A stretch of DNA of 64,000 nt from the NCBI RefSeq assembly GCF_046105845.1, contig NZ_CP151004.1. The stretch is one strand, 5' to 3'. This DNA is from Escherichia coli (lineage in GTDB: Bacteria > Pseudomonadota > Gammaproteobacteria > Enterobacterales > Enterobacteriaceae). The notes under the pieces were generated by a model. The model was given only the letters and a program-made list of their open reading frames with translations, did not search any database and had not been told where the DNA came from. Each line of letters starts with the position of its first letter. Positions within the stretch are counted from its first letter, which is position 1. The position numbers and the translations under genes were made by a program. Below, one piece after another: positions 22,196 to 22,250 of this stretch.

Positions 22196-22250
22196 TAAAA
22201 AAGAAAAGGCCGGCGATCGCGAAACGGTCTTCCGTGAATCTACCGGCCTG
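22196..22250 (-). terminator. putative attenuator/terminator hairpin between nusB and thiL
   Basis: On the minus strand AGGCCGG ... CCGGCCT (7-bp GC stem, long loop) followed by TTTTCTTTTT; structure read directly, function inferred. Confidence 0.4.

Follow-up and report, generated by a model that had tools for sequence, protein, structure and literature searches.

Probable intrinsic terminator acting as a partial attenuator between nusB and thiL of Escherichia coli

In the nrdR-ribD-ribH-nusB-thiL-pgpA cluster of Escherichia coli, nusB and thiL are separated by a short spacer in which a G+C-rich stem is followed by a run of T, and this raises the question of whether transcripts coming from ribD-ribH-nusB end at this site and, if so, how thiL and pgpA are still transcribed. 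The locus was analysed within a window of 64 kb, i.e., the whole stretch of DNA under study (64,000 nt), and the coordinates of its features are collected in Table 1. Gene identities were taken from annotated E. coli records, to which a 601-nt stretch (nusB, spacer, and thiL) is 99.8% identical, and from K-12. The same 601-nt stretch was present once in 5424 of 5426 complete E. coli genomes, and the window is E. coli chromosome. The order of the six genes is the same as in K-12 and in the closest strain, and RefSeq gives no annotated feature within the nusB-thiL spacer. A consensus scan for sigma-70-like promoters returned no site in the spacer or in nusB. Outside of the cluster, an intact ORF of 518 aa was found between pgpA and yajO (window 18973-20529, plus strand), which is missing at this position in K-12 and, in the closest strain (2012C-4221), carries the annotation of a frameshifted pentapeptide-repeat protein.

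Table 1. Features of the nusB-thiL region in window coordinates, listed in the direction of transcription
Feature	Position	Strand	Description	Basis
nusB CDS	22255-22674	minus	139 aa; stop TGA 22257-22255	ORF list; 99.8% identity to annotated nusB, K-12 b0416
nusB-thiL spacer	22178-22254	minus	77 nt	
Basal stem, 5′ arm AGGCCGG	22243-22249	minus	begins 5 nt past the nusB stop	sequence, fold, custom scan
Hairpin interior	22214-22242	minus	29 nt; imperfect upper stem: U·G, 1-nt bulge, GAU/AUC, CGGAA/UUUCG tip	
Basal stem, 3′ arm CCGGCCU	22207-22213	minus		sequence, fold, custom scan, covariation
U tract UUUCUUUUUU	22197-22206	minus	directly 3′ of the stem; thiL Shine-Dalgarno and ATG come after	
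thiL Shine-Dalgarno GAGG	22186-22189	minus	8 nt 5′ of the ATG; outside the hairpin	
thiL CDS	21200-22177	minus	325 aa; first gene 3′ of the terminator; ATG 22177-22175	
pgpA	20707-21222	minus	23-nt overlap with thiL	

Read on the sense (minus) strand from the nusB stop, the sequence runs UGA-UAUCC-AGGCCGG-(29 nt)-CCGGCCU-UUCUUUUUU-A, and the full spacer up to the thiL start reads UAUCC-AGGCCGG-UAGAUUCACGGAAGACCGUUUCGCGAUCG-CCGGCCU-UUCUUUUUU-ACCUGCU-GAGG-CAUAACGU-AUG. The initial annotation, made from the sequence alone, had described a 7-bp stem AGGCCGG/CCGGCCT in a 77-nt spacer; stem, coordinates, and spacer length were recovered exactly as claimed when the minus strand was read. The T run that it had placed after the stem is present as well, although its wording of this run (TTTTCTTTTT) counts the last T of the stem twice, and the letters that actually follow CCGGCCT are TTTCTTTTTT. 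The 29 nt between the two arms, which had been left undescribed, are not a plain loop and fold themselves. Above the seven perfect basal pairs (six G-C and one A-U), the pair U13·G41 and the helix GAU/AUC lengthen the stem, which is then closed by the CGGAA/UUUCG tip, resulting in a compound hairpin of 43 nt with about 17 pairs. The 55 nt of the element fold with −22.0 kcal/mol compared to −11.9 ± 2.5 kcal/mol for shuffled sequences (z = −4.07), and 1 of 200 shuffles folded equally well. The hairpin was kept in both the minimum free energy (MFE) and the centroid fold of a 181-nt context, in which no alternative antiterminator pairing was found. Since the reverse strand carries no T tract after the hairpin, the element is one-directional here. 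Of the features of an intrinsic terminator, the sense strand has both the stable, G+C-rich stem-loop and the U-rich tract immediately 3′ of it.

Terminator-like sites in the window were identified with a custom scan, which asked for 7 or more perfect stem pairs, 5 or more of them G-C, around a loop of up to 40 nt, and for at least 8 T within the next 10 nt. With both strands counted, the 64-kb window contained four such sites, compared to a mean of 0.13 (maximum of 2) in 100 dinucleotide shuffles. A standard terminator scan of the window did not list the nusB-thiL site, as loops of more than 8 nt fall outside its limit. Of the other three sites, two lie 28 and 22 nt past the stops of ORFs of 431 and 439 aa, respectively, which we take to be phoR and brnQ based on their sizes and order. 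At these two operon-end terminators the distance from the stop is hence several times that at nusB-thiL, where the stem follows after 5 nt.

Published Term-seq data of K-12 place an RNA 3′ end in this element. The initial annotation had proposed that the hairpin and T run could partially terminate the ribD-ribH-nusB transcript ahead of thiL-pgpA, and had named 3′-end mapping as the check and a lack of 3′ ends at the position as the finding that would speak against it; a curated, dominant 3′ end is reported at MG1655 435608(+) by Adams et al. 2021 (eLife; PMC7815308, supplementary file 1). The sequence given there for this end is ...GAUCGCCGGCCUUUU(C)UUUUUUACCU, with flanks of ATCCAGGCCGG...GATCGCCGGCCTTTT(C)TTTTTTACCT (PMC7815308). 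Position 435608 (window position 22203) is the C of UUUUC within the U tract and lies 4 nt past the last stem pair. The basal stem and the U tract of K-12 are identical to those of the window, the Term-seq data being those of K-12 and not of the window strain. Mean read counts for this end were 4139.75 on the sheet for LB at OD 0.4 and 2616.98 on a second sheet, which we infer from its place in the file to be M63 glucose; the end is listed neither on the third condition sheet nor in supplementary file 3, which gives Rho and terminator scores (PMC7815308). It was classed as “orphan” (PMC7815308) because it lies 52 nt past the nusB stop and thus misses the 50-nt limit of the “primary” class by 2 nt. 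The canonical terminators dapD, talB, nhaA, and sgrS in the same table have their 3′ ends 4–8 nt past the stems (PMC7815308). As a distance of only 4 nt from the stem is too short for primary release, some 3′ trimming has to be assumed, and this short distance also leaves room for an end produced by trimming of transcripts that were terminated further downstream.

A Rho-termination region was reported inside thiL at K-12 435798(+), with a Rho score of 2.29 and a significance of 1e-5 (PMC7815308, supplementary file 2). It lies 190 nt 3′ of 435608, about 165 nt into thiL, at window position ~22013 (minus strand), and suggests that read-through transcripts meet a second, Rho-dependent checkpoint inside thiL. 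The text parts of the supplements of the TERMITe and SMRT-Cappable-seq papers contained no entry for nusB, thiL, or a 4356... coordinate, and the literature searches returned no paper specifically on a nusB-thiL terminator.

Conservation of the element was determined at NusB loci of 80 Enterobacterales species (one locus per species), in all of which (80/80) thiL lies directly 3′ of nusB. Together with five further E. coli strains and the window, these gave 84 distinct spacers, and a hairpin abutting a T-rich tract was found in each of them (84/84). In 78 of the 84 spacers, at least five T occur in the first 8 nt past the stem, compared to a T background of 23%. The hairpin exists in two forms. 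A short form with 8–9 bp of the GGCCGG/CCGGCC type and a loop of 4–6 nt occurs in Pantoea, Erwinia, Tatumella, Hafnia, Edwardsiella, Cedecea, Buttiauxella, and others; a long form of 40–47 nt occurs in Escherichia, Salmonella, Citrobacter, Klebsiella, Enterobacter, Kosakonia, Kluyvera, and relatives. A covariance model built from 35 short-form hairpins only (Erwiniaceae and related genera) matched the window at 22194-22255 (minus strand; 25.1 bits, E = 7e-4), with the interior being read as a loop insertion. Hence, both forms share the basal stem and the T tract. Variants of the Enterobacter type (AAACCGG) were not recovered above the threshold of this short-form model. In Pantoea (loci L052, L059, L061-L066, L070, and L072; ~2914-2957), the short hairpin has an A tract on one side and a T tract on the other, and both strands are matched by the covariance model, so that the element looks bidirectional there, though thiL is co-directional.

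Alignment of 42 long-form spacers with MAFFT and subsequent RNAalifold analysis yielded no consensus structure, as the interiors of the hairpins were misaligned. Structure was hence assessed by counting pairs on the well-aligned basal helix, by folding the interior of each sequence individually, and by the short-form covariance model described above. For the eight pairs of the basal helix in the long-form alignment, 92.2% of the cells were paired, whereas slid controls reached only 29–57%. Compensatory changes were observed in six of these eight pairs, e.g., GG/CC to AG/CU to AA/UU, and none of 500 shuffles reached the observed values. Although identity among the long-form interiors is only about 50%, z is below −2 for the folds of 75% of them (median −3.7); the interior is thus a conserved structure without a conserved sequence. 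Conservation within the spacer is confined to stem, T tract, and ribosome-binding site, and the block CUGCUGAGGCAUAACGU at the thiL Shine-Dalgarno sequence is nearly invariant in the Enterobacteriaceae alignment. In species with expanded spacers (Hafnia, Edwardsiella, and Mangrovibacter), the T tract has remained next to the hairpin and not next to the thiL ribosome-binding site, which argues for hairpin and T tract being one functional unit and against the T tract being a translation element of thiL. Conservation of the hairpin and T tract throughout the 84 spacers, with compensatory changes, supports a function and, along with the published 3′ end, the proposal that transcripts are terminated at this site.

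Based on these data, it is likely that the element is a canonical intrinsic terminator that acts as a partial attenuator inside the nrdR-ribD-ribH-nusB-thiL-pgpA cluster. RNA polymerase would transcribe the 43-nt hairpin with its G+C base and then the UUUCUUUUUU tract, where closure of the hairpin against the weak rU:dA hybrid would release a fraction of the transcripts without Rho. The ribH-nusB mRNAs released in this manner would have a 3′ end protected by the hairpin, while the remaining polymerases would read through to give thiL and pgpA mRNA, and expression would thus step down at the element, from nusB to thiL-pgpA. The transcription unit is tabulated as ribE-nusB-thiL-pgpA (PMC8743547), and the nusB-thiL-pgpA junctions were found to be co-transcribed in Vibrio cholerae by RT-PCR (PMC5312566). 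From this co-transcription and the tabulated operon, along with the co-directional thiL and pgpA and the lack of a promoter-like site, we infer that termination is partial. As the thiL Shine-Dalgarno sequence lies outside of the hairpin, read-through transcripts can be translated.

Compared to canonical intrinsic terminators of E. coli (lambda tR2, sgrS, and dapD), the element is alike in having a G+C-rich stem and a sense U tract just past a stop codon, as well as in vivo 3′ ends a few nucleotides into the U tract. It differs by the unusual length of its hairpin (43 nt), the upper part of which is bulged and weakly paired, and by the co-directional genes immediately 3′ of it. Partial terminators inside operons that set expression ratios include the rpsU-dnaG terminator of the rpsU-dnaG-rpoD operon and the rplL-rpoB attenuator. 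As at nusB-thiL, a hairpin with a U tract lies between the genes in these operons; their downstream genes are co-transcribed by read-through, which is proposed here for thiL and pgpA as well, with a step-down in expression.

The leakiness of the terminator is probably built into its geometry. The distance from stop to stem is 1–9 nt in 81 of the 84 spacers, with a mode of 5 nt (exactly 5 nt in 47/84). With the stem beginning so close to the stop, a ribosome on the nusB stop codon would cover the 5′ arm and block closure of the hairpin, and termination would occur mainly when the lead ribosome lags or has already left. When Li et al. 2016 moved a stop codon to 5 bp before tR2, efficiency dropped from about 90% to less than 10%, which was due to the terminating ribosome covering the 5′ arm and was relieved by removing translation (PMC4824070). 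Their construct W28p shares with nusB-thiL the stop codon 5 bp before the hairpin (PMC4824070), but W28p is a synthetic reporter with tR2, whereas for nusB-thiL repression by the ribosome is predicted by analogy. Another ribosome-repressed terminator close to a stop codon, the pyrBI attenuator, is cited in the same work (PMC4824070). By the same analogy, the terminator between nusB and thiL is probably kept leaky by ribosomes that stop at nusB and mask the 5′ arm, and its longer hairpin should strengthen this repression by giving the ribosome more time to reach the stop. Inside thiL, Rho may then catch those escaped polymerases that no ribosome follows. A stricter form of this gating, in which thiL and pgpA are transcribed only if a ribosome is parked on the nusB stop as the polymerase reaches the U tract, and in which the long hairpin evolved to widen this time window or to recruit a double-strand-specific factor, appears doubtful. 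If it were true, transcription-translation coupling would be reflected in how strongly an essential cofactor kinase and a lipid phosphatase are expressed.

The 3′ end and the hairpin may also be read in other ways. The hairpin could mainly be an RNA-stability element, i.e., a barrier to 3′-to-5′ exonucleases, with Rho terminating downstream in a poorly translated 5′ part of thiL and the transcripts then being trimmed back. The Rho-termination region at 435798(+) and an end only 4 nt past the stem would both fit such trimming, but accepted intrinsic terminators in the same dataset likewise end 4–8 nt past their stems, and an exonuclease barrier needs no U tract, while a T-rich tract follows the stem in 78 of the 84 spacers and stays attached to it in expanded ones. 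We consider this reading improbable; the two functions are compatible, and the conserved U tract argues against a barrier as the sole role. For the extended hairpin of about 17–21 bp in Escherichia, Salmonella, Citrobacter, Klebsiella, and Enterobacter, recognition by a double-strand-specific factor, e.g., RNase III, has to be considered; such a factor would split the polycistronic RNA into nusB-proximal and thiL-proximal mRNAs. The constant size of the long form (40–47 nt) and its folding without sequence identity indeed suggest selection on the extended helix itself. Upkeep of terminator stability after insertion into the loop would, however, explain the covariation equally well, short-form species manage with a stem of 8–9 bp, and the interiors of K-12 and the window are the least well paired. 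Furthermore, neither nusB nor thiL occurs in the running text of a paper on RNase III targets (PMC6212723), and cleavage of this kind is very unlikely.

Two further readings are effectively excluded. A regulated attenuator (a riboswitch, autoregulation via Nus factors and BoxA, or a small-RNA site), with read-through responding to thiamine pyrophosphate or NusB levels, is suggested solely by the position of the element between the gene of an antitermination factor and a thiamine gene. The Rfam search of the spacer found no known cis-regulatory RNA even at E ≤ 10, and the search of the window for BoxA (UGCUCUUUAACAA-like) gave a single match with two mismatches at 51533, which is 29 kb away and at chance level. 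With no BoxA near the operon, no antiterminator pairing in the context fold, and conservation limited to stem, T tract, and ribosome-binding site, such regulation is scarcely credible. Still less so is a chance palindrome or a degenerate REP-like dispersed repeat without function, for which the GGCCGG/CCGGCC arms are superficially similar to REP stems. A REP or other dispersed palindromic repeat was ruled out, as each of 5424 E. coli genomes contains the element at a single place; the 0.13 sites per window expected from shuffles, the conservation with covariation in 80 species, and the in vivo 3′ end at the element likewise stand against an origin by chance.

Variation of the element within E. 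coli was concentrated in the hyper-variable interior (22214-22242), while 4533 of 5424 genomes showed 100% identity in the 3′ arm, the U tract, and the ribosome-binding site. The interior itself fell into two divergent allele classes (window 22214-22242; loci L002, L006, and L007), i.e., a K-12-like class (GAUUCACGGAAGACCGUUCC...) and a class with GAGUAGCGGAAAA...CCGUACUC, which occurs in a few E. coli strains, is near the allele of E. albertii, and is much better paired than the K-12-like class. The 43-nt hairpin of the window had no exact match among 5409 genomes; a private T turns a G-C pair into G·U. The interiors of the window allele and of K-12 are the least well paired of the lineages examined (z of −0.5 to −1.4, with −0.5 for the window), which could slow folding.

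The nusB-thiL element is most likely an ordinary intrinsic terminator; it is already contained in the published 3′-end catalogue of K-12 (PMC7815308), and the result changes no concept. For the annotation, it means that the “orphan” Term-seq 3′ end MG1655 435608 is most likely that of the nusB terminator. Partial termination at this site would explain how one transcription unit can yield more ribH-nusB than thiL-pgpA product, and the element offers a natural and deeply conserved example of a terminator at a stop-codon distance at which ribosomes repress termination. Its interest is mild and lies in the conserved 5-nt spacing from stop to stem, which predicts ribosome-gated read-through, and in the hairpin expansion in Enterobacteriaceae, which is conserved in structure.

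Three further sites of the cluster were recorded along with the terminator. A second curated Term-seq 3′ end of K-12 (434622+, likewise “orphan”) corresponds to window position ~23189 (minus strand) in the spacer between ribD and ribH (23165-23252). It lies just past a short C/G hairpin (CCGCCCCCCUGCGGGG) without a U tract and just 3′ of a promoter-like TCGAAA-18-TATTAT (23243-23214), and may originate from processing, pausing, or a weak terminator. A Term-seq 3′ end of K-12 classed as “internal” to pgpA (436722+, LB at OD 0.4) corresponds to window position ~21089 (minus strand). Past the stop of pgpA (20707), the hairpin AGUGCCCCAAUUUUGGGGCACU at 20625-20646 has no U tract on the pgpA strand but a T-rich tail on the plus strand, and hence looks like the terminator of the convergent gene. 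Compared to this end of the operon after pgpA, the internal terminator between nusB and thiL is the more canonical one.
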